Of a stretch of DNA of 64,000 nucleotides, positions 1 through 18,679 are shown piece after piece. Within the stretch, counting starts at the first letter, position 1, and each line of letters begins with the position of its first letter. Source of the DNA: a virus; IMG/VR virus record IMGVR_UViG_3300017971_000203; one strand, given 5' to 3'. Position numbers and translations under genes: made by a program. The notes beneath the pieces were generated by a model. It was given only the letters and a program-made list of their open reading frames with translations. It had not been told where the DNA came from and ran no database searches.

Positions 1-1701
1 GGTGAACTGATCACGACCCCATTCGTTGGGATCCGTGAACGTTCCATCCGCCCCCTGTGCCCACAGCGCCTCGGGACCGCCGGCAGGCCAGGTGTACTTC
101 GTCTGGTCGCCGAAGTCCGCCGTGTGGGCGGTCTCGACCGGCGCCGCGTAGTACATCACCGTCACCAGGGTGTTGGCGTCGGCTGCCGTGTCCAGCGTGA
201 CATCGATCGCGCCATCGGTATAACCGATGGTGTTTGTTCCAGCGGCGTCGACATCTCCGGTCAGGTTCCCGGAACCATCATCGATGATGGTCTTCGCAGC
301 TCCACCGGAAGTGTAGGAGATCGTGACAGTGCGGGGCTGCACTGGCACCTCGCCGAGATCCTCCTGAATGAGGGGTAGTCCGGTCGCTGTCCCGTCGCCT
401 CCAGCGGCGAGGACACGAGACATCAGCCGCGTGTTCAGAGCGCCGGGAACTTCATCTCCACCAGGCTCCGTCACAGCGATGATATCGGACAGGTCGTTGA
501 GCACGTCCGGGAAGTACTTCCCAGAAGTCGAATCCGAAAAATCGACCTCCTCGTACTGCTCCTGCACGGAGTAGCCGCCCAGCGACGTGTTGTAGAGCCA
601 GACGTTGACGTTCCACGCCGAGTACAACCCGGTGTCCGCATCGTAGTTGTCGACGTTACCCTCGACCGTCACCCGGATGTCGTCGCCCCAAGTCCCAGCA
701 CTGATAGGGTTCATGTCCCAGGCATCGATGATGTAGTCCACCAAGATTGGGGACCCATCATGCGGAGCCGTGGTAGCCGTGAAGTCCCAGGCCCCCGTCT
801 CGTAGTCGATGTTGCCAGCGGACACATCACCGGCCAGAGTCCCAGCCGTCGCCGAGTCGTCACAGCCCTTGTCCACAGACGCCGGGGTGCACGCAATGCC
901 GATCGCCGCCGCATCAGGGACCTCCGTGACATCGAAAGTCACCGTGAAGATGCCCGTGACACAGTCCAGAGTGGCCACCGTACCTGCCACCGTACTCCCG
1001 GTCATCGTTCGACCATCCGCAGCCAGCGTCGTGAAGTCGAGCGTGGTAGGAGCCGCACCTACGAGCCAGTCGAGCTGAGTCGCGGCCGCCGAAGTGTCCG
1101 GCACGATCGCCAGGAGCTTCTCATCGATGCCGTCAAAGTCCGCCGCGATGGTTGGGAGAATGCCAGGAGGCACTCGACCTTCGAAGCTGAGCTCGGCACC
1201 ATCTCCGACAAGCAGAGTGGTTCCATCCCGCTCGACGCACTGCGTCGAAGCGACAGGCGTGTCCGCCTCGCGCCACCGGATGGACATGCTGAAGGGCACG
1301 ATCGGCGTGTCGCCACCGTTCACCTTCAGCTGGGTGGTCAGGGCAGTCTCCGAGAACACCGTCTGGGATCCATCGCCCGTGTCCAGCTCGAAGTCGTACT
1401 GAGCCGACTGGAGCTTGGCTTCCGACATATCAGCGTCGCCAGGCACGACACGAACAACGTAGGCTCTACGCCCTCCATTTGCGAAGTACGCCGCCATCGC
1501 CAGCGGCAAGTAACTGTTCTGCGTCAAGTCACCGAACAGGCGCGTGAACTGCTCGAAGCTCGTAACAAGCGTGGCTTCGTTCACAGGACCTTTCGTGGTG
1601 AACCCGACGACACCGAGATTCGAAGTCGACACCCCCTGGACCACTTGGACCTGGGAGGGAATCTCCTCGATGAAGACTCCAGGAGCGAGCAGCTCGGCCA
1701 T
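1..1701 (-). CDS. Tail sheath protein (3'-truncated by window edge)
   Basis: Manual translation from ATG at 1701: MAELLAPGVFIEEIPSQVQVVQGVSTSNLGVVGFTTKGPVNEATLVTSFEQFTRLFG, the classic sheath N-terminus. Absent from the ORF track because it runs off the window. Confidence 0.93.
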   Translation of the reverse strand, partial: MAELLAPGVFIEEIPSQVQVVQGVSTSNLGVVGFTTKGPVNEATLVTSFEQFTRLFGDLTQNSYLPLAMAAYFANGGRRAYVVRVVPGDADMSEAKLQSAQYDFELDTGDGSQTVFSETALTTQLKVNGGDTPIVPFSMSIRWREADTPVASTQCVERDGTTLLVGDGAELSFEGRVPPGILPTIAADFDGIDEKLLAIVPDTSAAATQLDWLVGAAPTTLDFTTLAADGRTMTGSTVAGTVATLDCVTGIFTVTFDVTEVPDAAAIGIACTPASVDKGCDDSATAGTLAGDVSAGNIDYETGAWDFTATTAPHDGSPILVDYIIDAWDMNPISAGTWGDDIRVTVEGNVDNYDADTGLYSAWNVNVWLYNTSLGGYSVQEQYEEVDFSDSTSGKYFPDVLNDLSDIIAVTEPGGDEVPGALNTRLMSRVLAAGGDGTATGLPLIQEDLGEVPVQPRTVTISYTSGGAAKTIIDDGSGNLTGDVDAAGTNTIGYTDGAIDVTLDTAADANTLVTVMYYAAPVETAHTADFGDQTKYTWPAGGPEALWAQGADGTFTDPNEWGRDQFT

Positions 1702-1777
1702 TGATCATCCTCCTACGTTCGCATGGTGCGACAGGTCTGTCTCGACTCCAAAACCGTCGAGCCGGTTTGCTTAGGTC

Positions 1778-2125
1778 TCAACCCTTCCCCTTGCGCGTCG
1801 TTGACTTCGGCTTCGACTTGACCTTGGCCTTGGCCTTGGCCTTCGGCTTTGGTTTCGGCTTCAGAGCCGGCGGCTCCTCCGGCGCCGCCTCCTTCACCGC
1901 CTCGGGATCTGGAGAGACCGGGGCGGGCTTCGGCTCCGGTTCAGGAGCCGGTGCAGGGTCTGGTCGATAGACCAAAACCCCATTCCGCACCGCGCGCAAG
2001 AGCTCCGCCGAGCCCTCCAGACGTTTTTCCACGGGTGTCCACCGCTTCGCCGCGAAGTGTGCAGTCGTACCATCTCGTAGGGTCAAAGACCGCCCCCCTC
2101 GAGCCTTGTTGTAATACCTGCCCAT
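1778..2125 (-). CDS. Hypothetical protein with Pro/Lys-rich tail
   Basis: RBS GAAAGGAG; lies in the tail operon; low-complexity PAPEPEP/KPKPKAK C-terminus. Confidence 0.65.
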   Translation of the reverse strand: MGRYYNKARGGRSLTLRDGTTAHFAAKRWTPVEKRLEGSAELLRAVRNGVLVYRPDPAPAPEPEPKPAPVSPDPEAVKEAAPEEPPALKPKPKPKAKAKAKVKSKPKSTTRKGKG

Positions 2126-2141
2126 CTCCTTTCCACCTCGC

Positions 2142-2903
2142 CTACTGGTCTACGGTACTCCGAATAGCCGTAACTGCAGTGTGCCGCACGGGGTCTTCCA
2201 AGTCCAGTTCTGCCTCGATACGAATAGACACAGAGAAAGCAATCACGCGGTCTGTCGGTTCCCCGAACTCATCCTGTGGTCCGACACTCTCGAGGAACAC
2301 ATTGTAGTAGCGCTTGTCCCCGACACTGTCCACCACCAGCAAGTGACTATAGCTGTGAGCGCGGAACCTCTTCAAGACGTGGTTCAAAATAGCGTTGGCC
2401 TGATTCCTCGGGCCTGACTGCAATCTCCCACCCCGATTTCTTGCCGTGATAGTGAGCGAATACGAGAGGTCCCAGGGATCCGCCTGCGTCACCTCTTCGA
2501 TCTCACTCCACCCTTCCGAATAGACTTCTCCGAACACCTCGTAGCGAAGTCTCTGGGCTCCCGGCGCTGCCGTCCTGTACTGCTTGAGCCCTGGGTGCCT
2601 CCGCTGATTCGCGGGCTCCATGTTGTCTCTTCGGATCATGATATTCGGAAACTTGAACTCCTGCAGCCGATCGTCCGGGCTCGCAAAAACGATAGGAACA
2701 CCAGGCTCCCCCATCGGAGGGCACACGCCTGGGATCCCTGTGAGGTAGTACTTGTCCCCGGCGATCCCGGGATCCTGGCTGAGCTCCCCGCCCAGAGTCA
2801 GAATGACGCCCTGGTCGAATTCACGGAGGCCCACGGTGCCGTTACGAGCCGCACCACGCCGCCGTTCATCCTTTGTCCCCTGGTTTTCGTTCACCCCAGG
2901 CAT
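2142..2903 (-). CDS. Tail terminator/sheath stabiliser (T4 gp15-like)
   Basis: PIVFASPD...FPNIMIRRD pattern; position between neck and sheath genes. Confidence 0.6.
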   Translation of the reverse strand: MPGVNENQGTKDERRRGAARNGTVGLREFDQGVILTLGGELSQDPGIAGDKYYLTGIPGVCPPMGEPGVPIVFASPDDRLQEFKFPNIMIRRDNMEPANQRRHPGLKQYRTAAPGAQRLRYEVFGEVYSEGWSEIEEVTQADPWDLSYSLTITARNRGGRLQSGPRNQANAILNHVLKRFRAHSYSHLLVVDSVGDKRYYNVFLESVGPQDEFGEPTDRVIAFSVSIRIEAELDLEDPVRHTAVTAIRSTVDQ

Positions 2904-2907
2904 GAAC

Positions 2908-3474
2908 CTATCCAGTCACAAGCTCCGGCACGCGCTCCTCGAGCCCAATGAGAGACGCCTGAGCCATCCACACAGACATCCCAGACTGATCGTCCAGTCC
3001 TGGCAGGGGCGGCAAGTAGCCCGCTTCACAGAGGGCCTCAGAGGCCTTCCCGAGTGCTTCCACGGCACACTCTCTGTCACAGTCGCGGGCATCCTGAACA
3101 GACACAACGAGACTTTCCAGGTACTCCTCGAAGCACTCCCCCACGGAAGCTCTTTCCGGGAGGGCCTCTTCCCCGGGGGTCTCTGCTCCTTCCTGTTTGG
3201 AAGCAACCCCCTTGAAAGTCTTCCCGAGATTGTATTGCTTCAGGAAAAGCCGATCCGAATTGCTTCGGTCTTCTTCCTGCTTCGACCTGATCTCGGCCGC
3301 CCTCTTGTCGGCCTGTCGCCAGTCCTCCGCAGTCATCGGCTTCTCGGGATCGAGCCCGAGAGACTTCCGAAGGCCGCCCTCCTTGATCTTCATGTTCTGG
3401 AAGGGCTTGCCCTGCCCCTTCTCCGCGAGCCCCTCCCGGATGCCTTCCAGGACTGCATTCATCTGAGCGTTCAT
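2908..3474 (-). CDS. Hypothetical protein
   Basis: Tiles the operon; RBS GAGGGGG. Confidence 0.6.
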   Translation of the reverse strand: MNAQMNAVLEGIREGLAEKGQGKPFQNMKIKEGGLRKSLGLDPEKPMTAEDWRQADKRAAEIRSKQEEDRSNSDRLFLKQYNLGKTFKGVASKQEGAETPGEEALPERASVGECFEEYLESLVVSVQDARDCDRECAVEALGKASEALCEAGYLPPLPGLDDQSGMSVWMAQASLIGLEERVPELVTG

Positions 3475-3492
3475 GTGTCCCCCTCGCCCGGA

Positions 3493-4308
3493 CTAAAACC
3501 GGAAGCCAAGCATCTTCTGGAAGCGCTCGTAGTCCCGCAACCCCGAAGCGCCGATACCCGGAGCCGAAGCCTCCCGACCCCACTCCCGATACCACGGATC
3601 CTGCATCGTGCGGCGCCAGTCCCGCCGATTCTTGGCGAAACCGAAGAAGCCCGATCCCCGCAGACGCCGTAACGCCGGTCTCCAGTGCATCTTCCCACGC
3701 ACATCCCCAAGACCGAACTCCAAACGGATCGCCTCGAACGCAACATCGGGAACAGCCCTGGCGTCGGGCATCGTTTTCTTCTTCCTCTTCCCAGCATCCC
3801 TAATCCCGAGACGGGCCAACAAGAGCTTCCACTCCGAAGCGTCCTTCTGACGCTGCTTCGCGATCTTCTGAACTTCCCGCTGCGTCATCTTCCGCGACAC
3901 CATAATCGCTTCAGACTTCTTCGGGAAAAATGGAATGGTATCCAGAGTCCACGGAGAAAAGCGCGCCAACACAAGCACTTCCTCGGAAGGCCTCTTCGGC
4001 GGCCTATGAGATCGAACATACAAAGCGACCTCTTTACCGTCAACTCTCCGAATTTTCTTGGCCTTTTGGCGTGTCCGTATAACCCACGCCTCCTCCCCCT
4101 CGGAGAGTCCGGTCGCTTTCGCCAACTCCAGGGACTGCTTGTAAGCCTTCCAGTTGTCCCCGGAAGGGATGTCCTGCCGTATCTCCTCCAGCACCTTCGT
4201 CGCCACATCCCGGGGAACAGCGGACAGAAGAGCCGCCGTCCGATCTGGCCACTCCCGAACCAGCTTCAAGACCTGTTGGAACGACCGCGTTGGCTTGATC
4301 CGGATCAC
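3493..4308 (-). CDS. Putative neck/tail morphogenesis protein (HK97 gp10-like C-terminus)
   Basis: LEFGLG...MHWRPALRRL resembles the EFG...P.WRPA motif; synteny. Confidence 0.45.
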   Translation of the reverse strand: MIRIKPTRSFQQVLKLVREWPDRTAALLSAVPRDVATKVLEEIRQDIPSGDNWKAYKQSLELAKATGLSEGEEAWVIRTRQKAKKIRRVDGKEVALYVRSHRPPKRPSEEVLVLARFSPWTLDTIPFFPKKSEAIMVSRKMTQREVQKIAKQRQKDASEWKLLLARLGIRDAGKRKKKTMPDARAVPDVAFEAIRLEFGLGDVRGKMHWRPALRRLRGSGFFGFAKNRRDWRRTMQDPWYREWGREASAPGIGASGLRDYERFQKMLGFRF

Positions 4309-4823
4309 GACGCCGCCAGCTCCTTCTCCGTCTCAGCAATCCTCTCCCACAGGGTCTGCCGCCGGGGTCCCAAGAGCTGCACCACCGTGACGAGGCGCTG
4401 TCCGTCCTTCAGAACCACCGGAACGTTTGGAGTATCCCTGTGAACGGGCTGCATCGACCGGAGATACTCCACATGCTCCTCACACACCCCCACGATGCGC
4501 TCCCGACCACTCACCAGGATACCGTACTTTGACTCACGCGCACACACGAAACACCAATCCGAGAAACGGCCCTCCGACATAGGACCCTCGTACTCATGGA
4601 ACGTGTCCCCTTTGATCGGACCGCCGCAGTCATCCACTGCTGTGCATCGGGTCCCAGGCAGTCCGAACTCGCGCCCGCGCCAGAACCTCAAACACACGGC
4701 GCACACCGGCGAAACGCCCTGCGCAACGTAGACTGCCACCCGGTCAGCGTTCACGGGCACTCTCCAGTCGTCCCCTGCCCGAAGAGCTTTTGCTCCGGTG
4801 GATAGGAAGTGTAGCGTCGGCAC
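4305..4823 (-). CDS. Cys-rich putative zinc-binding protein
   Basis: CAVC, CTAVDDC, CFVC and CEEH motifs. True start may be downstream of 4823. Confidence 0.55.
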   Translation of the reverse strand: MPTLHFLSTGAKALRAGDDWRVPVNADRVAVYVAQGVSPVCAVCLRFWRGREFGLPGTRCTAVDDCGGPIKGDTFHEYEGPMSEGRFSDWCFVCARESKYGILVSGRERIVGVCEEHVEYLRSMQPVHRDTPNVPVVLKDGQRLVTVVQLLGPRRQTLWERIAETEKELAAS

Positions 4824-5389
4824 TCGAGAGTGAACCCGACAAACGCAGGGCCATCGAAGAGGTGCCCGTCATCCGCAGCCTGGATCACGTCGAAAAAGTA
4901 CCCCCCGAAATTTGGGTCACTCCGGATCACAGACGCCTGATCGAAAAAAGGCAAATCCCAGAACTCGATGATGTCCCCCTCCACGGGAGAAGGCACGCCG
5001 CGCCTCTCCATCTCGACCCGAGCGATCCAGACGTTACACCGGAACTCAACCGCCGCCCCCTCCTCTCTCGTCTCCCCCGTACTGGTCGGATACGACACGA
5101 AGGCATCGATCTCGTAAGGGCCCTTGTAAGCAAACGAGATGGGCTCCCCGTAGACCGGGTCATAGACCGTGTTTGACTGGTCCTGAGCGTAATACTTGAG
5201 CTTCGTGCCAGCGATAGCTGTGTGTTCTTGAGCCCACAGGTCAAAGAGCTCCAACTCCCGATCATCCAGGTACATCGGAGCTGTCCCCACCTCGACCCCG
5301 TGGTCCTGTCCGAGCCCATGGGAATCTCCGGGGCCACCACCAGGAGCCATGAGGAAGTCGAGATCTGGGACGTTGTGGTGCCTCTTCAT
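4751..5389 (-). CDS. Neck/head-closure protein (T4 gp14-like)
   Basis: DPVYGEP and PVEGDII motifs; directly follows the gp13-like gene. Confidence 0.7.
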   Translation of the reverse strand: MKRHHNVPDLDFLMAPGGGPGDSHGLGQDHGVEVGTAPMYLDDRELELFDLWAQEHTAIAGTKLKYYAQDQSNTVYDPVYGEPISFAYKGPYEIDAFVSYPTSTGETREEGAAVEFRCNVWIARVEMERRGVPSPVEGDIIEFWDLPFFDQASVIRSDPNFGGYFFDVIQAADDGHLFDGPAFVGFTLECRRYTSYPPEQKLFGQGTTGECP

Positions 5390-6499: not shown

Positions 6500-7037
6500 G
6501 CCGCACCTCCGCGCCCTCCCTGAGAGCTCCCATACCCAGATAATCACCGAAGCCCTGCTGCTGCGATTGCGGCGGTCGTGCCGCCGCAGGCGCCTCCCCA
6601 GGGCTCATCAACTCCTGCAGCACTGTCGCCTCGGCCTGGCTCCGAGGCGTCGGGTCTGCGAAGCGGCCCACCGTGGCCGGCAGCACCTCCTGGGCCTGGG
6701 GATCCCGCATCGGATACGCACTCCGCTCCAGCACAGGACGCCCCTTCGGGCGAACCGCCTTCTGGAGGCCAGGGCGCGCCTGACGCGGAGCAGGCAGGCC
6801 GCCTGTTCCCAAATCTTGTCGGAGCGCCACGAGACCGGCCCTCAGCTCCGCCAGCTCCCCCGCGATCGTATCCAGCCTCCCGATGGTCGCGTCCACGGCT
6901 TCCACCAGGACCGCTCCGCGATCAACTTCGGGCCCCTCCTCCACCACAGGCTCTGCCTGCGGCTCTTCCAGAGATGGGGGCTTGAGCACACCCAGCCCAT
7001 GCAACTGCTCAAGAACCTTCTTCGCCTTTCCTGCCAT
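6480..7037 (-). CDS. Hypothetical protein
   Basis: Start MAGKAKK after RBS GGGAG; first gene of the neck operon. Confidence 0.6.
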   Translation of the reverse strand: MAGKAKKVLEQLHGLGVLKPPSLEEPQAEPVVEEGPEVDRGAVLVEAVDATIGRLDTIAGELAELRAGLVALRQDLGTGGLPAPRQARPGLQKAVRPKGRPVLERSAYPMRDPQAQEVLPATVGRFADPTPRSQAEATVLQELMSPGEAPAAARPPQSQQQGFGDYLGMGALREGAEVRHVREEG

Positions 7038-7187
7038 CACCGTCTCCCTTCTGTCCGGATCGGACGATCCCAACTGCCCTGACTCGACTGTAGCGCGTCG
7101 TGCGGCGTGTCGTCCAGACAAGTGACAACGGTCCAGTATAGTCGCCCGCTCGAACAAAAGAAAAGCAGGCCTACGTCACGGTCGAGC

Positions 7188-7216
7188 TTTACACACGCTG
7201 TGATGTATGGTAGCGT
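7188..7216 (+). promoter_or_regulatory. Sigma70-type promoter for the leader/tRNA operon
   Basis: TTTACA-17 nt-TAGCGT with TG extension. The same TAGCGT -10 occurs at 55031 and 61088. Confidence 0.65.
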
Positions 7217-7262
7217 CAATTCGTTGGCTGGGCTCCTCCTCCAGTCACATCATGGTGAGACG

Positions 7263-7328
7263 ATGATGTCATTGCTTTCCAGTTACCTACTTCATCATTC
7301 GGCCCTGCCGAAGGGGGGTGCTGCGTAA
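7263..7328 (+). CDS. Attenuator leader peptide MMSLLSSYLLHHSALPKGGAA
   Basis: 21-aa ORF after GGTGAG. Codons 3-13 are only Ser/Leu/Tyr/His; the 3' part is complementary to the terminator 5' arm. Confidence 0.75.
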   Translation: MMSLLSSYLLHHSALPKGGAA

Positions 7329-7357
7329 GCACAGGTTCTGACACCCTGGTTCCAGTC

Positions 7358-7396
7358 AGCCCCTCTCGGCAGAAGTCGGGAGGGGCTTTCTGATTT
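7358..7396 (+). terminator. Attenuator intrinsic terminator
   Basis: 13-bp stem AGCCCCTCTCGGC/GTCGGGAGGGGCT, AGAA loop, then a T-rich run (TTTCTGATTT). Confidence 0.8.
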
Positions 7397-7397
7397 C

Positions 7398-7485
7398 GGG
7401 GGTTGTTCCCGCCGGCGGGCTGTAAACCCGTTGTCTTGTGAAACAGGTGGGTGGGCGACGAGAGGTTCAATTCCTTCAACCCTCA
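7398..7485 (+). tRNA. Atypical tRNA-Tyr(GTA)-like RNA, 8/4 fold, no canonical D-arm
   Basis: Acceptor GGGGGTTG/CAACCCTC; anticodon arm GGCGGG-CTGTAAA-CCCGTT; T-arm GAGG-TTCAATT-CCTT. Confidence 0.7.
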
Positions 7486-7557: not shown

Positions 7558-8067
7558 ATGACCACACGCCGAACCAGCACCGAAGAACGCATCAAGGACG
7601 CACACCGAAGGGGCTACCGAATTCGAAAAGACGGAAAAGTCATAGGGCTCAACGGTCGCATACTGAAAGTGCGTACAACCGGAGGGACCCCCTACCCGAA
7701 GTTCAACGTCGCCAAGCCCAGTCAGGGATCCATACCCGTCCATCGCTTCGCCGGGTTTCAATGGTTCGGAGAGATCGTGTTCCGGCCCGACATCCAAGTG
7801 CGCCATCTGGACGGAAACCCGTTCAATAACTCCAGAGACAACCTAGCCTTCGGAACCGCCAGCGAGAACATGCTCGACAGACCCGAAAAGGACCGAGCAG
7901 CTATCGCAAAGTACGCTGCATCACATCGCAGACGTTTGACAGAAGCACAAGTAGCCGAGCTCCGATCAATGCGGGACAACGGCGCCACCCTAGCAGAACT
8001 GGTAAAGGCCTTCGGAATAGCCAAATCAACCGTCTCCTACATCGTAAACCGAAGGACGTACAAGTAG
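7558..8067 (+). mobile_element. Free-standing HNH homing endonuclease with C-terminal HTH
   Basis: VHR...VRHLDGNPFNNSRDNL..GT.SEN motif; C-terminal helix-turn-helix; RBS AGGAG; inserted in the tRNA cluster. Confidence 0.88.
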
Positions 8068-8104: not shown

Positions 8105-8189
8105 GGAAGGAGCCACTGAGTGGTCAGTAACCGGTCTCGAAAGCCGGGGTGGGCACCGCGTCCCAGGGGTTCGATTCCTCCTCCTTCCC
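8105..8189 (+). tRNA. tRNA-Ser(CGA), 8/4 allo-tRNA-like
   Basis: Acceptor GGAAGGAG/CTCCTTCC (8 bp); 4-bp T-stem; 5-bp D-stem ACTGA-GTGG-TCAGT; long variable arm; anticodon 8138-8140. Confidence 0.8.
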
Positions 8190-8190
8190 T

Positions 8191-8266
8191 CGCCTCGTAG
8201 CTCAACTGGTTAGAGCGCCGGGTTGTGGTCCCGGAGGTGCGGATTCGAGTCCCGTCGAGGCGCCCA
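8191..8266 (+). tRNA. tRNA-His(GTG)
   Basis: Cloverleaf, anticodon 8225-8227, C73 plus encoded CCA. Position -1 is T, not G. Confidence 0.9.
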
Positions 8267-8340
8267 GCCATCGTAGTCCAACTGGAAGAGACGCAGGGTC
8301 GAGGGCCCTGATGTTGCGGGTTCGACTCCCACCGACGGCA
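8267..8340 (+). tRNA. tRNA-Leu(GAG), short variable loop, C33
   Basis: CAGGG-TCGAGGG-CCCTG anticodon arm; T-loop TTCGACT; one acceptor mismatch. Confidence 0.72.
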
Positions 8341-8381
8341 CTTGACTTTCGCCTCACCCCTCCCCCGGCTATCCTGAGCCC

Positions 8382-8630
8382 ATGAGGTGGAAGATGACCC
8401 TCATCCGAAGAACAGAAGAAGAAGACGCACCGGGGCTGGATGATCCCCCTCTCCAGGTAGGCGACGGTCTACTGGCGCTCTGGTGCTCGGGCTCCGGGGC
8501 CACCAGGTACCTGCCCAGGGAATTCATCGACGGGATCGTCGCAGACCCGACCTTGTTCTCCCGCCTCGTGGACGAGCTCCAGGAAGAGCTCAAAATGGTC
8601 CACGCCTGGAAATTCCGAAAGCCGGTGTGA
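8382..8630 (+). CDS. Hypothetical protein between two tRNA-Leu(GAG) copies
   Basis: 82-aa ORF whose stop lies inside the 5' end of the next tRNA. Confidence 0.5.
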   Translation: MRWKMTLIRRTEEEDAPGLDDPPLQVGDGLLALWCSGSGATRYLPREFIDGIVADPTLFSRLVDELQEELKMVHAWKFRKPV

Positions 8631-8694
8631 TCCAACTGGAAGAGGTGCAGGGTCGAGGGCCCTGTTGTTGCGGGTTCGACTCCCACCACCGGCA
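8621..8694 (+). tRNA. tRNA-Leu(GAG) second copy, short variable loop, C33
   Basis: Perfect acceptor GCCGGTG/CACCGGC; anticodon arm and T-arm identical to the 8267 copy. Confidence 0.75.
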
Positions 8695-8696
8695 TT

Positions 8697-8725
8697 GCCC
8701 CCGTAGCCCAGAAGGCAGAGGCCCC
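8697..8725 (+). pseudogene. Truncated tRNA 5' fragment
   Basis: GCCCCCGTAGCCCAGAAGGCAGAGGC has acceptor 5' strand and D-arm only. Confidence 0.55.
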
Positions 8726-8726
8726 G

Positions 8727-8800
8727 GTCCCGATAGTCTAATAGGCAAAGACAGCGCCTTTAAACAGCGCCGAATTCGGGTTCGAATCCCGATCGGGACA
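8727..8800 (+). tRNA. tRNA-Leu(TAA), short variable loop
   Basis: Acceptor GTCCCGA/TCGGGAC; anticodon 8761-8763; perfect T-arm; 31-39 mismatch. Confidence 0.75.
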
Positions 8801-9054: not shown

Positions 9055-9804
9055 ATGCTACAGCACCTGATCGACAAAGGCCGGAAGCTACTCGAAGCCC
9101 GCCCGATACCGCTTCCGAAGAAAGCCATCAACAAAACCATGAAGCGGCTCGTCGACCACCTGGAAGCGGCCTTCACAGAGCACGAGAAGGACTCCCCAGG
9201 AGAGCCACTCGGGAGCGGCATCTGGGCAGTAGCAGATCTCGACGTCACCGATGTGCTCGGAACAAAAAAAGCAATCCAGGTGATGATCCACTCCACGAAC
9301 TCTTCAGGCAACTCCCTAGGCGTCAACGCCCACTACAACGTCCGCACGAACGACATCGACATCTACATCCGTGGGCAGATCCCCGGGCAACTGGCTCTCC
9401 AGCTCCTCCGAGGAAAAGGCCGACGCAGTATCGAAGGCTCCATCCGGGACCTGCTCGAGCACGAACTCACCCACGCCCTCGACAACCTGCGCTGGGACCC
9501 TTCCACGTACAAGGGCTTCTTCTCCGACGACTACGAAGCCTCCGACGAAGGCAACGCCGCCCAGCTCCGCGACTTCAAGCGCTACGTCAACCAGCGCATC
9601 GAAGTGAACGCCCACATGCAACAGGTGGTGTCCCAGGTCCTCGTGGCCGCCGAGAAGTTCGCCCGGATTCTGACGAAGAAGTCCCCCCAGCAGCGGGTCC
9701 GCTTCCTACTGAAGCAGTCCGACACCTGGAAGGCCATCGGGAAGTATCTCAACTCCCGCAACAAACGGCGCATCCTGAAAGCGGTCTACGCAGCGCTGTC
9801 CTAG
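9055..9804 (+). CDS. Zincin-like metallopeptidase, putative internal head protein
   Basis: HELTH plus downstream EVNA; N-terminal LIDKGRKLLEA tag. Confidence 0.7.
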   Translation: MLQHLIDKGRKLLEARPIPLPKKAINKTMKRLVDHLEAAFTEHEKDSPGEPLGSGIWAVADLDVTDVLGTKKAIQVMIHSTNSSGNSLGVNAHYNVRTNDIDIYIRGQIPGQLALQLLRGKGRRSIEGSIRDLLEHELTHALDNLRWDPSTYKGFFSDDYEASDEGNAAQLRDFKRYVNQRIEVNAHMQQVVSQVLVAAEKFARILTKKSPQQRVRFLLKQSDTWKAIGKYLNSRNKRRILKAVYAALS

Positions 9805-10742
9805 ATCACGCCCATGTCCTGGAGCACAGTCACGACGCCCTTCTTGATGGTCTTCCGGCTCTTGGTCGTGAGCTGCCCCTGGATCTCGTTCCAGGTGTGC
9901 GACTGTCGCAGGAGAAACGTCACGGCCCGGCTCGGTGTCCAGGCCACGAGCTTCGACCGGTGCGCCGGTACCAGGTCCCGCACCTGGCTCGCGATCTCCT
10001 GCATGAAGGCCTTCACCTCTTCGGGCTGGTTCAGATAGCGCTTCCGAGCTGCCTTGGCGTCCTGCTTCCGCTGCTCCTTCGACGGAGGCGGCAACACACC
10101 GGCCTGCGACAACCGATCCTTGAAGCGCTGTACCGAGTGCCCGACGCCGAGCTCTTTCCGCTTCCGGGCAACCAGTCGGTGAGACACCTCGAAGCCGGTC
10201 ATCTTCAGGAGCTTCGACACCGCGCGATCCGAGAACGGGTGCAACGGATCCTCCCGCTGTAGGATCGCCGCAATGGTCTGCTGAAGCCGCTTTTTCCGAA
10301 GAACGTCCTTCGCGTGGGTGATCTCGTGCATCAGAGCGTACTTCATCGCGCCCTGAACGCTCGACATCTGAGTACCCTTCAGGAGCGGCACGATCTCACC
10401 CGCGCCAAGGTTGCCGTTCATTTGCACCTGTATGATCCGGTCCCGGGGCATGTAGACCGCACCAAGGAAAAGGCCCCTCACACCCCTCTGCTGGACGCTC
10501 ACGATCGACACGGGTATTTCCCGCTTCTTCCCCCTCACGTCCGAAACAGAGATGGTCTCGGTCCCCCAGACCTTATTCCCTAGGGGTGCAAGGGGAGACG
10601 TCCGTGCGAGGGAACGCAAAGAGGGCTCGAACTGCTTCATAAGCCGCTTCACCAGAGCCTCGACCACTTGGGGAGGCAACGCGATCGGACGCGCTTCGTC
10701 CAGGAGCTCCCGTCCCCGCTCAATGGTCTCCGAGATGCTCAT
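9801..10742 (-). CDS. Zincin-like metallopeptidase with inserted sigma54 RpoN-box DNA-binding domain
   Basis: HEITH...EVKA; insert EDPLHPFSDRAVSKLL...VSHRLVARKRKELGVGHSVQR; N-terminal IERGRELLDEA tag. Confidence 0.72.
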   Translation of the reverse strand: MSISETIERGRELLDEARPIALPPQVVEALVKRLMKQFEPSLRSLARTSPLAPLGNKVWGTETISVSDVRGKKREIPVSIVSVQQRGVRGLFLGAVYMPRDRIIQVQMNGNLGAGEIVPLLKGTQMSSVQGAMKYALMHEITHAKDVLRKKRLQQTIAAILQREDPLHPFSDRAVSKLLKMTGFEVSHRLVARKRKELGVGHSVQRFKDRLSQAGVLPPPSKEQRKQDAKAARKRYLNQPEEVKAFMQEIASQVRDLVPAHRSKLVAWTPSRAVTFLLRQSHTWNEIQGQLTTKSRKTIKKGVVTVLQDMGVI

Positions 10743-11095
10743 GACTTCTCCAGATCCGCCAGCGCCTTGTGAGCCTTGTCGGTCAACTCGTACTGCTCGT
10801 CCCAGGTTGGTGAACTCTTCCACCGACCTGTTGCATCAGCCCCCGCCGACGTCGACAGCCCCTGCCGGCGCTTCCCGACAGCCTTCACGAAACCCCTCTT
10901 CTCGAGCTTGCGGACCATGTTCAGCTCGCGCCTCGTGGTCGCAGCATCCACCCGGAACTTCCCCCCGATGGTGAACTGCAACCTGGCAACCATGGCCTTG
11001 GTCAGCTTCAGCTTCTTCGCCCGACTGAGAGCCTTCGGCTTCGCCTCACCCAAGAGCCCCCGACCCTTTTCGATTACTTCAGACAACTGGCTCAT
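10739..11095 (-). CDS. Basic, possibly winged-helix, putative internal head protein
   Basis: N-terminus MSQLSEVIEKGRGLLGEAK; RKLEKRGFV...YELTDKA wHTH-like pattern. Confidence 0.6.
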   Translation of the reverse strand: MSQLSEVIEKGRGLLGEAKPKALSRAKKLKLTKAMVARLQFTIGGKFRVDAATTRRELNMVRKLEKRGFVKAVGKRRQGLSTSAGADATGRWKSSPTWDEQYELTDKAHKALADLEKS

Positions 11096-15494: not shown

Positions 15495-16997
15495 TTACAG
15501 GTTCTGCACTCGCAGCTGCCCATAATATTCCGATCGGAGCAATTTCTTCGCGTATCGCGTGCGAAGACCCTTGCGGAAGCTCATGTCGTTCGGATCGAGG
15601 AAGGTCGGAGTTACCTGCAGCGGAATGTAGGGAGCCCACACGAACCCACTGTCGAGGTAGCTGGCGCCCTTCAGCCCGATCAGGGCCATGTCGCTCTGGA
15701 AGAAGGGGTCGATGTAGACGACCCACTTGTTCATAAGCGTGCCGTTCTTGTACACGCCGAACTGACCGTGCTGCGTCATGGGACGCGGCATGTCGAGCGG
15801 CGCACCGAACTGCGGACCCGAACTCCAAATGGGCCGGAAGTCGCCGTGGGTGGTCAGCTGCTCGATGAGCGCGCTGATCTCGGGCGAGGTGACGATCCAG
15901 TTGGCCGGCGCACGCAGCGTGGCTTTGTGGATGCCGTTGGACACCCGGCTGAAGCTCGTGATGATGCTCCGCAGGTGGTCGACCTCGCTGATCCCGGCGG
16001 GCGGGATGCGATCGAAGACGTCGGTCGTCCCGGTGCTGGCCAGAAAGAGATCCGTGATGATCTCACGATCGATCTCGAGCGCCATCTCCTGGGCGGCGGC
16101 GGAAACGAGCTCGGCCTCGGCCTCGATACCCTGGAGCGCCCGGAGGTCCTCAGCGGCCTCGCTGGACCACAGAGCCTTCAGGCGACGGCTCTCGGCCTCG
16201 ATGACGGCCTTCTTGACGTCGAGCTTCATCCTCGGGAGGAGGGTGTTCAGCTCACCGTCGTAGCGGTAGTACATCTTGATCTGGTTGCCGTTGAGCGGCG
16301 CAGCATCGAAGAAGACTCCCGCAATCGCACCGTTCGAGTAGTTGAGCGTACCCGCAGTGAGATTGCTGGTGGCACCGGTGTCGGCGGTCCCGTCCGCAAG
16401 GAAGAAGCCTTCCTGCACGGTGCTTCCGTCCGCAGCACTGATCTCACGGATGATCACCTGGATGCCGCGATCGGTGCTGGGCTTGTGGACCGGGGTGAAC
16501 GACAGGCTGACCGACAGAGGCGTCTGACCAGACACGTAGTTGATGCCGTCACCAACTGCCAGAACCTCGCCGTCCACATACTCGGACGTGTAGTTCTGGT
16601 TGAAATCGCGCGGGAAGATCTCCCCTGCCGTGACCGCACCCTTGGTGGTCGCGTACACGTAGTCCAGATAGAAGACTGCGCCTTGCGGTGCGGTCATCGG
16701 CTGAACAGAGACGATCTCGTTCGCGATGAGATTGGGGAACACCCGGGTGAGCACCGGGAAGATGAACTTGGTGAAGTAGCCCACGTTGATGGCGCGGGTC
16801 TCTTCCGACATGGCACGGAGGTGACGGGCCTGATTCTCGAACAGCATCGCCAGGCAGCCCTTGCGATACATATCGAAGGGCGTGCGGCCGGGCATGCCCT
16901 CCATCAGGTCGTCCCACTTCTCCACCAGGACACTGACCAGTCGCTGGTCGGCGATCGTCCCCGTGCTGTCTTCGATGATCATTCGACGAGCTTCCAC
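15495..16997 (-). CDS. Major capsid protein (T4 gp23-like)
   Basis: EKW, LFENQ, VQPMTAP, RLKALWSSE, LEIDREI, WAPYIPL and GLRTRYA motifs; GTG start after AAGGAGG. Confidence 0.95.
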   Translation of the reverse strand: MEARRMIIEDSTGTIADQRLVSVLVEKWDDLMEGMPGRTPFDMYRKGCLAMLFENQARHLRAMSEETRAINVGYFTKFIFPVLTRVFPNLIANEIVSVQPMTAPQGAVFYLDYVYATTKGAVTAGEIFPRDFNQNYTSEYVDGEVLAVGDGINYVSGQTPLSVSLSFTPVHKPSTDRGIQVIIREISAADGSTVQEGFFLADGTADTGATSNLTAGTLNYSNGAIAGVFFDAAPLNGNQIKMYYRYDGELNTLLPRMKLDVKKAVIEAESRRLKALWSSEAAEDLRALQGIEAEAELVSAAAQEMALEIDREIITDLFLASTGTTDVFDRIPPAGISEVDHLRSIITSFSRVSNGIHKATLRAPANWIVTSPEISALIEQLTTHGDFRPIWSSGPQFGAPLDMPRPMTQHGQFGVYKNGTLMNKWVVYIDPFFQSDMALIGLKGASYLDSGFVWAPYIPLQVTPTFLDPNDMSFRKGLRTRYAKKLLRSEYYGQLRVQNL

Positions 16998-17029
16998 CTC
17001 GCCCTCCTTTGGTGAGAACAACAAACTGG

Positions 17030-18679
17030 TCAGGCCCCCGGGGGCAGCAGCGGCCTGAGATCCTCAAGTGAACATGATAATCCGTTGTAGCCCCCGGAAT
17101 CCTCGGAGACGAGTTGACGCCCGCCCCTCGGCTTCGGCCACGGCTCCTCTTCGTCGCGCGGCGTGCCTCTAAGACCACCGCCGAACTCTTCGCTCAGCCG
17201 TGCAGCAAGCTGCCGCACAGACTCTCTTCCTCTCTTCTTCGGCCGACTCTCCTCGATGAGAGCATCGACCTCTTCCTTGGAGTCGATCGACTGGACCGAC
17301 TCCAGGATGGACCGGATCTTGTGCGCGTGCGGATTCGTATGCAGACGCTGCTCGGCGTACAGGCGAAGACCTGTGACCTTCAGGGCCTCCAGAGCCTTCT
17401 CCAGAGCCAACTCGAGCTTCCCACTGCGCTCAATGAGCTCGGCCCTCTCTTCCTGCGCCTTCTCGTGCCGCGCTTCCTGCAGAGACGCGAGGTCCCCCAG
17501 CTCAGCCAGCGCTGCGTCCACACGCTCCTGGAACTCTTCCACGGAAGCGTACTCCGTGACATCCCCGACTAGCCGCCTCACGCGATTGGCCTGTGGGTGC
17601 CCAGAGACAGCCCGCTCGAGGTAGCAGAGATAGCCGGCCACCTGGGCGGCCTCCATCATCTCTTCCACCTCCTCCTGGAGCTCCTCGATCCGGGCATCCC
17701 GCTCTTCCAGCTGCGCCCGGAGGTCCGCCAGCTCTGCGTCCTTTGCAGCCAGGACATCCACGGACTCCTCGGACAGCATGAACGGACTCAAGATTTGGGA
17801 GATCTGCTCGAGCGCCAGGGCCTTCTGCGTCTCCGCCGGGTCCGCCGAAAACTCCTCCCGGACCTGCTCCTCGACCTGCGCCCGAATTTCGCCCATGCGG
17901 GACAAGAGCATCTCGGAGAGCTTCGCCTCCATCTCGTCCCGGACCTGGACCTTCGCGATCTCGAGGGTGTCGTCATCGACGCCCTCGACGTGCACATCCG
18001 GCACCTCTTCGGTCAGCGGCGTCACCTTGAGCTCCACGCCCTCGAAGAGGAACCTGCCGGAACCGGTATCGACATCTTCGCTCACGAGCTCGGGGTAGGC
18101 ATCCTGGTCCGCAGGATCCGCAACGAAATCGAACGCGACAAGCCGGTAGTCCTCCTGGACCACGTCCTGCCCGCGCTGGTTGGGCTTGGTTGTCCCGTAG
18201 CCCCTGGAGCTGACGCCCACGCGGCAACCGCTCCTGAGAAGAGCCGCGAGGTCCTTGCCCCGGCTGGTGGGAAGAATCTCGGCTTCACCGTAGATCTTCC
18301 CGTCCTGGCCAACGGTCAAGTTGGTGATGATATGAGATACGCGGGAGAGCGCGGTCTTTCCATCGGAGGGGTGATCGAGCTCTCCGAACACCTTCCGCTG
18401 ACCGAAGCTGCTCTCGAGACGCTTGATCTCACGCTCCCAGAGGGGCAGCGGGTAAAGGCGCTTGTTCTCTGTCGCCTCGTCATACCGCCCGAACTCTCCA
18501 CGAACACGAACACGACCAGTACGCTTGTCCTCCAGAATCTCCAGAGGGGCCAGCTCGTCCAGAAACTCGCGAAGTACGGGAAGGTCGCCGTTGATGGCAA
18601 CGGAGTCCTCTGTCAGCACCTTGTCCGCCATTTGTCCTGCCTCCGAAACCGGCAAGCTGGTTTGTTGGACGCCCGCCAT
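17030..18679 (-). CDS. Prohead protease (gp21-like) fused to coiled-coil scaffold
   Basis: NKRLYP, GELDHP, GVSSRG and FDFVADP motifs; acidic coiled-coil C-terminal half. Confidence 0.92.
   Translation of the reverse strand: MAGVQQTSLPVSEAGQMADKVLTEDSVAINGDLPVLREFLDELAPLEILEDKRTGRVRVRGEFGRYDEATENKRLYPLPLWEREIKRLESSFGQRKVFGELDHPSDGKTALSRVSHIITNLTVGQDGKIYGEAEILPTSRGKDLAALLRSGCRVGVSSRGYGTTKPNQRGQDVVQEDYRLVAFDFVADPADQDAYPELVSEDVDTGSGRFLFEGVELKVTPLTEEVPDVHVEGVDDDTLEIAKVQVRDEMEAKLSEMLLSRMGEIRAQVEEQVREEFSADPAETQKALALEQISQILSPFMLSEESVDVLAAKDAELADLRAQLEERDARIEELQEEVEEMMEAAQVAGYLCYLERAVSGHPQANRVRRLVGDVTEYASVEEFQERVDAALAELGDLASLQEARHEKAQEERAELIERSGKLELALEKALEALKVTGLRLYAEQRLHTNPHAHKIRSILESVQSIDSKEEVDALIEESRPKKRGRESVRQLAARLSEEFGGGLRGTPRDEEEPWPKPRGGRQLVSEDSGGYNGLSCSLEDLRPLLPPGA

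Follow-up and report, generated by a model that had tools for sequence, protein, structure and literature searches.

The window, by which we mean the whole 64-kb stretch of viral DNA that was analysed, belongs to a phage with 60% G+C and T4-like head genes. It contains a tRNA island in which an 88-nt RNA gene lies on the plus strand together with an HNH homing endonuclease and tRNA genes called by ARAGORN. The main features of the locus are as follows.

7398-7485, plus strand: the element studied here, 88 nt, with all five helices intact
7558-8067, plus strand: HNH homing endonuclease, inside the tRNA island, whose C-terminus carries a helix-turn-helix domain
8105-8800, plus strand: tRNA-Ser(CGA), tRNA-His, two tRNA-Leu(GAG) and tRNA-Leu(UAA), called by ARAGORN
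15495-17024, minus strand: Gp23 major capsid protein
17030-18679, minus strand: prohead protease

The HNH gene resembles SegB of T4 and T6 and the endonucleases adjoining bacterial L-arrays. The tRNA-Ser(CGA) gene (8105-8189), whose acceptor and T stems have 8 and 4 bp, is of the (8/4) kind known for phage tRNA-Ser from Mukai et al. (PMC5389517). The tRNA-Leu genes of the window (8267-8341, 8621-8694 and 8727-8800) are 74-75 nt long, have no long variable arm and are type I-like; the two with anticodon GAG carry C at position 33 and have weak Rfam scores (37-40 bits). Across the loci that carry relatives of the element the median length of tRNA-Leu is 77 nt, and type I tRNA-Leu is known from Streptomyces (PMC6614811).

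Upstream of the element (7115-7396) there is a promoter-like site at 7115-7142, followed by a short ORF and by a terminator hairpin at 7358-7387, 10 nt before the tRNA. An ORF at 9801-10823 on the minus strand weakly matches the DNA-binding domain of sigma-54 (PF04552, E 6e-9), in a region that resists annotation apart from this. In a PHROG scan, 10 further neighbouring ORFs had no match, and a search for related loci with a neighbouring 225-aa protein returned no relatives. Pfam and PHROG scans of 18 neighbouring ORFs revealed no RNA-repair, synthetase or nucleotidyltransferase gene. A preliminary description of the element, made from the sequence without database searches, had mentioned similar elements near bacterial RNA-repair loci, a link that is not supported here: the copies found here lie in tRNA arrays, and no repair gene is near the window element.

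Architecture of the element

The element can be read as a tRNA in which the arm between the acceptor stem and the anticodon arm is wired differently. Its parts, in 5' to 3' order, are given below, with values for the family of relatives where these apply.

7398-7405, plus strand: acceptor stem 5' strand GGGGGTTG, also given as GGGGGUUG; 8 bp with CAACCCTC at 7477-7484, including one G-U; 99.3% paired in the family, with 8/8 pairs covarying (96 sequences)
7406-7407, plus strand: UU, linking acceptor stem and helix P; TT in 119 of 165 family members
7408-7413, plus strand: helix P 5' strand CCCGCC, at the usual start of the D arm and continuous with the anticodon stem; partner at 7446-7451
7414-7432, plus strand: anticodon arm GGCGGG/CUGUAAA/CCCGUU, with anticodon GUA at 7422-7424; family stem 98.3% paired, 6/6 pairs covarying
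7433-7435, plus strand: helix V 5' strand GUC, the variable-arm stem; partner at 7457-7459
7436-7445, plus strand: A-rich variable-loop linker UUGUGAAACA, 10 nt; A/U-rich and variable in length and sequence in the family
7446-7451, plus strand: helix P 3' strand GGUGGG, within the variable loop; register from MAFFT and covariance-model alignments
7452-7454, plus strand: UGG abutting helix P, a putative stand-in for D-loop G18 G19
7457-7459, plus strand: helix V 3' strand GAC, with GC before and GA after
7462-7476, plus strand: T arm, 4-bp stem GAGG/CCUU and loop UUCAAUU; family T stem 87.5-96.6% paired
7477-7485, plus strand: acceptor 3' strand CAACCCUC and discriminator A73 (A at 7485); AAC comes next, and CCA is not encoded

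Ahead of the anticodon arm, whose outermost pair, a G-U, corresponds to positions 26 and 44, both the D loop and the 3' D strand are missing. Helix P forms with 6/6 pairs between 7408-7413 and 7446-7451. The motif GGTGGG is present in two overlapping registers (7446-7451 and 7450-7455), of which alignment with relatives selects the first. Since the strands follow one another as 5' P, 5' V, 3' P and 3' V, the two helices cross and create a pseudoknot with an H-type core. The element has the features of a tRNA, namely an acceptor stem with a discriminator, an anticodon loop of 7 nt that includes U33, and a T arm whose loop fits UUCRAnY, and its sequence contains the TyrRS identity elements A73, G1-C72 and G34/U35 along with a long variable element. 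The UGG directly abuts helix P in the window and in three relatives (L035, L043 and L045); the GG is offset by one base more in L009 (UCGG) and by three more in the phage crAss001, and GG follows helix P in 6/6 sequences whose retrieval did not require it.

A single-sequence fold of the window element gave a z score of -0.64 against shuffles, and the minimum free energy structure picks the alternative GGUGGG register. As such a test cannot represent a pseudoknot and here does no better than shuffles, the case rests on relatives.

Relatives and covariation of the crossing helices

Searching IMG/VR for the exact anticodon arm returned 52 loci that are mostly ordinary tRNA-Tyr genes, of which four share the unusual build of the window element with different helix sequences. 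Relatives were then collected with a pattern that keeps the unusual spacing and fixes the anticodon loop, one G (G36), TGG and the T loop, so that the invariance of these positions is partly imposed by the search. The pattern recovered at least 115 copies in viral contigs, with at least 96 distinct sequences, and at least 71 loci that are true members in species-representative genomes; viral and genomic rewired GUA genes together amount to at least 165 distinct sequences. A covariance model (R1) built from 95 other members, with the window left out, matched the window element with 80.7 bits (E 1.8e-27), and this was the single such copy in the 64 kb. Family members score 69-97 bits against R1, and canonical tRNAs, normal tRNA-Tyr included, at most 38 bits. 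The window gene therefore belongs to a class of pseudoknotted tRNA-Tyr genes that lack a D hairpin.

The main covariation set was a structure-blind MAFFT alignment of 96 sequences. In this alignment pairing in helix P reaches 98.3%, and 5/6 pairs show changes on both sides; one of its column pairs reads UA in 37 sequences, CG in 27, AU in 11, GU in 11 and GC in 6. The T stem is 87.5% paired, its first pair being non-standard in 36/96 sequences. The whole structure of 24 pairs is 96.8% paired, a value that falls to 40-58% when the 3' partners are slid by 1-3 columns. A second set comprised 89 matches, mostly bacterial, that were aligned by a model without helix P, and in this independent set helix P is 95.4% paired and 5/6 of its pairs covary. 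Complementarity of helix P is complete (6/6) in 144/165 sequences, compared with 8% when strands are swapped.

Because the linker varies in length and the 3' strand of helix V does not fall in one column, helix V was scored by a rule-based test; a second model (R2), in which helix V is nested, likewise did not place this strand in a single column. All three pairs form in 160/165 sequences, whereas 5' strands swapped in from a sequence that differs in the middle base gave a mean of 53 and a maximum of 67. The pair types of helix V include GCC/GGC, GUC/GAC, GGC/GCC, GAC/GUC, GCU/AGC and GCG/CGC. At the level of sequence comparison, covariation establishes the rewired fold made of helices P and V.

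Much of the preliminary description is upheld by these results. The 8-bp acceptor stem, the 4-bp T stem, the GTA anticodon arm and the absence of the D arm that it reported are each found at the positions it gave. The CCCGCC:GGTGGG pairing that it proposed is present between 7408-7413 and 7446-7451 and covaries in 5/6 pairs among the 96 sequences, and the GTC/GAC closure of the variable region (7433-7435/7457-7459) pairs 3/3 in 160/165 relatives. It had also asked for a covariance model from homologs, holding that a lack of covariation in the CCCGCC:GGTGGG helix would count against the idea; helix P covaries, as does helix V, and the objection does not arise. The re-wired L-shape with a pseudoknot that it suggested thus agrees with the covariation of both helices, the L geometry itself being what such a fold would be expected to adopt.

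Detection by standard tools

Standard tRNA finders pass over the element, as had been predicted. ARAGORN made no tRNA or tmRNA call at 7398-7485, and the Rfam search of the window element gave no match at the gathering threshold, RF00005 included. Among the matches listed, ARAGORN called 0/115 viral copies of the rewired GUA gene. Neither the window element nor a common relative had a BLASTN match among 50,697 GenBank phage records, and a broader 7-kb query against GenBank phage records found ordinary tRNAs only; the window phage has no close relative in this set.

Several known RNA classes were considered and rejected. A permissive E-value search of Rfam returned tRNA-Sec (RF01852) as the sole match; its 24.1 bits lie below the threshold of 47 bits, the anticodon is GUA and not UCA, and the 6-bp D stem is absent. 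The canonical four-arm cloverleaf does not apply, there being no D stem-loop and no match to RF00005 at threshold, and allo-tRNAs of the (8/4) kind have the 8/4 split with a cloverleaf D arm that is absent here. A tmRNA was set aside as none was called, and a Y RNA-like mimic was rejected on the lack of an Rfam match and on neighbours that are an HNH endonuclease, tRNAs and structural genes.

Genomic setting and spread

Among the matches listed, most of the genomic members come from Planctomycetota (a complete Schlesneria genome, Kuenenia, Pirellulaceae and Phycisphaerae), with some in Leptospirales and others. All of those listed lie within same-strand tRNA arrays of up to 35 tRNAs, usually with unencoded CCA. 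In five carrier genomes from Planctomycetota and Leptospirales (G001-G005, with loci L233, L174, L191, L203 and L189) the arrays hold 10-35 same-strand tRNAs. The rewired gene was found in 6/151 sampled Planctomycetota genomes. An ordinary class II tRNA-Tyr is present elsewhere in 5/5 bacterial carrier genomes checked, so that the rewired gene is dispensable there and may have some special role; in cells, it is an accessory, array-borne gene. Among the matches listed, the window copy is closest to chromosomal array copies of Planctomycetota, with 79-82% identity, and like them it is without CCA. This identity, together with the missing CCA, weakly suggests a Planctomycetota host for the window phage.

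The viral copies likewise keep the company of tRNA genes. Among the matches listed, 96/115 have other tRNAs within 500 nt, often 2-15 nt away, and the 368 tRNAs within this distance are on the same strand in all but two cases. In crAss001 (MH675552.1), a gut phage of Bacteroides that is in culture, an unannotated GUA gene at 4141-4238 (L396:1501-1598) fills the space from tRNA-Lys to tRNA-Phe. Its arms are 7/5, its crossing helices are CAUCA:UGAUG and CUCC:GGAG, and R1 gives it 32 bits; there is no tRNA-Tyr among the 21 tRNAs annotated within 1600-5200 of the record.

Two further genes were seen in the collected loci. A cloverleaf tRNA-Tyr at L002:1690-1776 on the plus strand, which ARAGORN calls, has an 8/4 branch and a D arm made up of a 6-bp stem and a 4-nt loop, as in Sec- or allo-like tRNAs, and may be intermediate between canonical and rewired tRNA-Tyr. 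At L108:724-826 on the minus strand, a 103-nt RNA adjoins a rewired tRNA-Tyr and is built on its framework of acceptor, P, V and T (46 bits), with a 7-bp stem and a loop of about 17 nt replacing the anticodon arm; it could be an intron-bearing or non-decoding relative.

Function as a tyrosine tRNA and alternative readings

The tRNA content of the viral loci points to what the rewired gene does. In the 44 viral loci with at least 15 ARAGORN tRNAs, each other amino acid is represented in 73-93% of loci, and a canonical tRNA-Tyr in only 3/44 (7%). The tyrosine slot is thus empty in tRNA sets that are otherwise near-complete, which marks the rewired gene as the tyrosine tRNA of such sets; in phage tRNA islands, it replaces canonical tRNA-Tyr. 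The discriminator is A73 in 165/165 rewired GUA members of the listed set, G1-C72 is found in 91/96 sequences, and CCA is encoded in 71/95 viral copies vs 11/70 genomic copies. No TyrRS gene was found in five large carrier phage contigs, three of them complete, and the host enzyme must therefore serve these five carriers. Judged from these sequence features, 7398-7485 is likely a functional tyrosine tRNA (GUA) gene with a non-cloverleaf core, and the window RNA is probably charged with tyrosine and used in translation.

A different use of the same RNA is as a decoy or sponge, which the preliminary description had also put forward. In this role the look-alike would bind, or be cut by, a nuclease that attacks tRNA-Tyr, or would titrate a tRNA-binding factor, and it would take no part in translation. 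Overexpressed tRNA-Tyr can neutralise PtuAB toxicity (PMC12673091, PMC13096335), and the retention of canonical tRNA-Tyr in bacterial carriers would fit as well. However, a decoy would leave near-full phage tRNA sets incomplete, another tRNA-Tyr being present in 3/44 loci, and would be expected to preserve the variable arm of the target rather than rebuild it. Nor does it need A73, G1-C72, a 7-nt anticodon loop, a 12-bp branch or an encoded CCA, yet all are conserved. With translation-related features conserved and the tyrosine slot filled by the gene, a decoy is disfavoured, and we consider it improbable.

The RNA could instead read tyrosine codons while carrying another amino acid, with serine and leucine as candidates, which would result in recoding or mistranslation of UAY. 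SerRS and LeuRS recognise long variable arms, and SerRS prefers G73. The scaffold has been found with several anticodons, and allo-tRNAs that share the 8/4 branch and the long variable arm are charged by SerRS whatever their anticodon (PMC5389517). Against this, the discriminator is A in 165/165 GUA members, and U73 with GCA and G73 with CCA on the same scaffold; the preference of SerRS for G73 does not agree with such a distribution, and the gene sits exactly in the slot vacated by tRNA-Tyr. Mischarging is accordingly judged highly improbable.

A regulatory, non-translational role, as leader or attenuator of the tRNA island or as a tRNA-like ligand or primer, draws on the promoter-like site and the strong terminator hairpin directly upstream (7115-7142 and 7358-7387); it is hardly credible, as the same RNA occurs in many other tRNA-array contexts at 2-15 nt spacing without such leaders, and the conserved features are those of a tRNA. 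Finally, a decayed pseudogene, left by deletion of the D loop from a class II tRNA-Tyr, can be dismissed as next to impossible: the 5' UU-CCC and the anticodon arm do resemble ordinary bacterial tRNA-Tyr and the single-sequence fold is no better than shuffles, but 165 distinct sequences with one architecture and compensatory changes in both new helices contradict decay, and the window copy has five intact helices.

Proposed mechanism

Read as a tyrosine tRNA, the element would reach the usual shape by another route. The acceptor/T branch retains its 12 stacked pairs as 8+4, with the D hairpin absent. The six bases after the acceptor stem continue into the anticodon stem and pair inside the loop of the variable arm as helix P, and the 3-bp variable-arm stem, helix V, is retained and crosses P. 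Helix P extends the 5' strand of the anticodon stem and so would occupy the place of the D stem. Stacked on the anticodon stem, it could replace the D stem and its two tertiary layers: in a normal tRNA the former has four pairs and the latter add two stacked layers, six in all, as many as helix P has pairs. In a normal tRNA, G18 and G19 of the D loop dock on the T loop; here, the UGG after helix P may substitute for them, docking on the T loop at the elbow. The outer L, A73, G1-C72, GUA and the protruding variable element would be kept for RNase P and the host CCA-adding enzyme, and the same features would serve TyrRS, EF-Tu and the ribosome. This reading would require the ribosome and TyrRS to accommodate a stack of 12 anticodon and P layers with the D loop missing.

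Why such a fold should be selected may be connected with phage defence. The PtuAB nucleases of retron-Eco7 and Septu cut the variable arm of tRNA-Tyr at positions 47-49, and T5 and SP15 tRNA-Tyr escape them through a distinctive variable loop (PMC12673091, PMC13096335, PMC11555353). In particular, retron-Eco7 cuts the tRNA-Tyr of E. coli within the variable loop, at U47/C48, and the tRNA-Tyr of phage SP15 needs its own distinctive variable loop to neutralise this system (PMC12673091); Septu likewise cuts the variable arm of tRNA-Tyr (PMC13096335). In the rewired tRNA, the region of PtuAB cleavage would be locked into the pseudoknot, and the rewiring might have been selected because the variable-arm site cut by PtuAB-type nucleases is buried or removed. 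We hypothesise that the rewired tRNA-Tyr is possibly nuclease-resistant, which is plausible from the published work on PtuAB.

Other anticodons on the scaffold

Anticodon-free patterns and a structure-based scan of the collected loci showed that the pseudoknotted scaffold also occurs with anticodons UCU, UAU, CCA and GCA, scoring 39-72 bits against the Tyr model. The loci are as follows.

L310:8691-8777, L314:6499-6583, L306:504-589 and L251:995-1083, plus strand: non-Tyr scaffold loci (UCU, UAU, CCA, GCA)
L309:6466-6553, L330:6235-6323, L189:1054-1142, L207:1199-1287 and L155 about 7010-7095, minus strand: non-Tyr scaffold loci
L394, L381 and L380: non-Tyr scaffold loci, listed without coordinates

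Helices P and V covary in the non-Tyr variants too, and L155 holds both a rewired Tyr gene and a rewired UCU gene. The discriminator is U73 with GCA, G73 with CCA, A73 with UAU and A, G or U with UCU; for GCA, CCA and UAU it fits the amino acid of the anticodon, which argues for cognate charging. Of the 18 viral loci checked, which do not include the three GCA loci, 17 lack a canonical tRNA for the anticodon concerned. The presence of non-Tyr anticodons suggests that the scaffold may be general. It is tentatively conceivable, though rather doubtful, that phages and mobile tRNA arrays have in it a second scaffold of general use, for Tyr, Cys, Trp, Ile(UAU) and Arg(UCU) at least, with cognate discriminators, competent with host synthetases and ribosomes and persisting by escape from tRNA-directed toxins or immune nucleases to which the D arm and variable arm of ordinary tRNAs are the signal.

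Comparison with known systems

The closest known molecule is the canonical class II tRNA-Tyr(GUA) (RF00005), as in E. coli tyrT/tyrU and phages T5/SP15 and T6, with which the window gene shares the CUGUAAA loop, G-U at 26-44, A73, G1-C72, a long variable region, a TΨC-type loop and a place in phage islands. It differs in that the partner of the D-stem strand is in the variable loop, which creates a pseudoknot, and in an 8/4 rather than a 7/5 branch. The (8/4) and (9/3) tRNAs, including allo-tRNAs (PMC5389517), resemble the window gene in the 12-bp branch split as 8/4, the long variable arm and their phage clusters, but fold as cloverleaves whose D arm is normal or Sec-like, and neither a pseudoknot nor a tyrosine species is described among them. 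D-armless mitochondrial tRNA-Ser(AGY) and truncated mitochondrial tRNAs (PMC7609411) also have no D hairpin and keep the dimensions of the L through an extended anticodon helix. Whereas these mitochondrial forms simply lose the arm and use adapted partners, the window RNA has the helix rebuilt, is 88 nt long and comes from a bacterial and phage setting.

Bacterial L-arrays and phage tRNA islands (PMC8421152, PMC4758250) are the setting of the rewired gene: they hold 20-40 tRNAs and occur sporadically in Planctomycetota and other phyla. HNH- or Seg-type endonucleases are reported nearby, and the window likewise has its HNH gene at 7558-8067. These array papers rest on tRNAscan-type calls. A term search of PMC8421152 (Santamaria-Gomez et al.) found no tyrosine or tRNA-Tyr term and no non-cloverleaf tRNA; in a term search of PMC4758250, tRNA-Tyr is only ranked among the rarest isotypes, and no non-cloverleaf tRNA was found.

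YrlA and other Y RNA mimics that lie next to Rsr-RtcB (PMC4201824) have a tRNA-like module, as does the window RNA. Y RNAs are set apart by a Ro-binding stem, an adjacent rsr gene and the lack of an anticodon arm or chargeable acceptor end, none of which applies to the window; they are probably what the preliminary description referred to in naming RNA-repair loci. No description of a pseudoknotted tRNA fold without a D hairpin was found in the open-access literature searched, and targeted reading of PMC7609411, PMC5389517, the tRNAscan-SE 2.0 paper (PMC8450103) and the tRNA-array papers likewise brought up none.

Implications

To our knowledge, elongator tRNAs outside organelles have been taken to be cloverleaves. 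A conserved and widespread tRNA with a pseudoknot core would mean that bacterial translation admits another wiring of the L shape, and would serve as a natural experiment on which properties of the core are needed by TyrRS, RNase P, the CCA-adding enzyme, EF-Tu, modification enzymes and the ribosome. The rewired gene also explains a systematic annotation gap, the 'missing' tRNA-Tyr of phages and arrays, and provides tRNA finders with an additional model. Furthermore, the close match to Planctomycetota arrays offers a hint as to the host of a T4-like phage that could not otherwise be placed. The scaffold could be a ready-made orthogonal tRNA for engineering, and if it is true that the rewiring protects against Septu and retron nucleases, it would represent a new kind of phage counter-defence.
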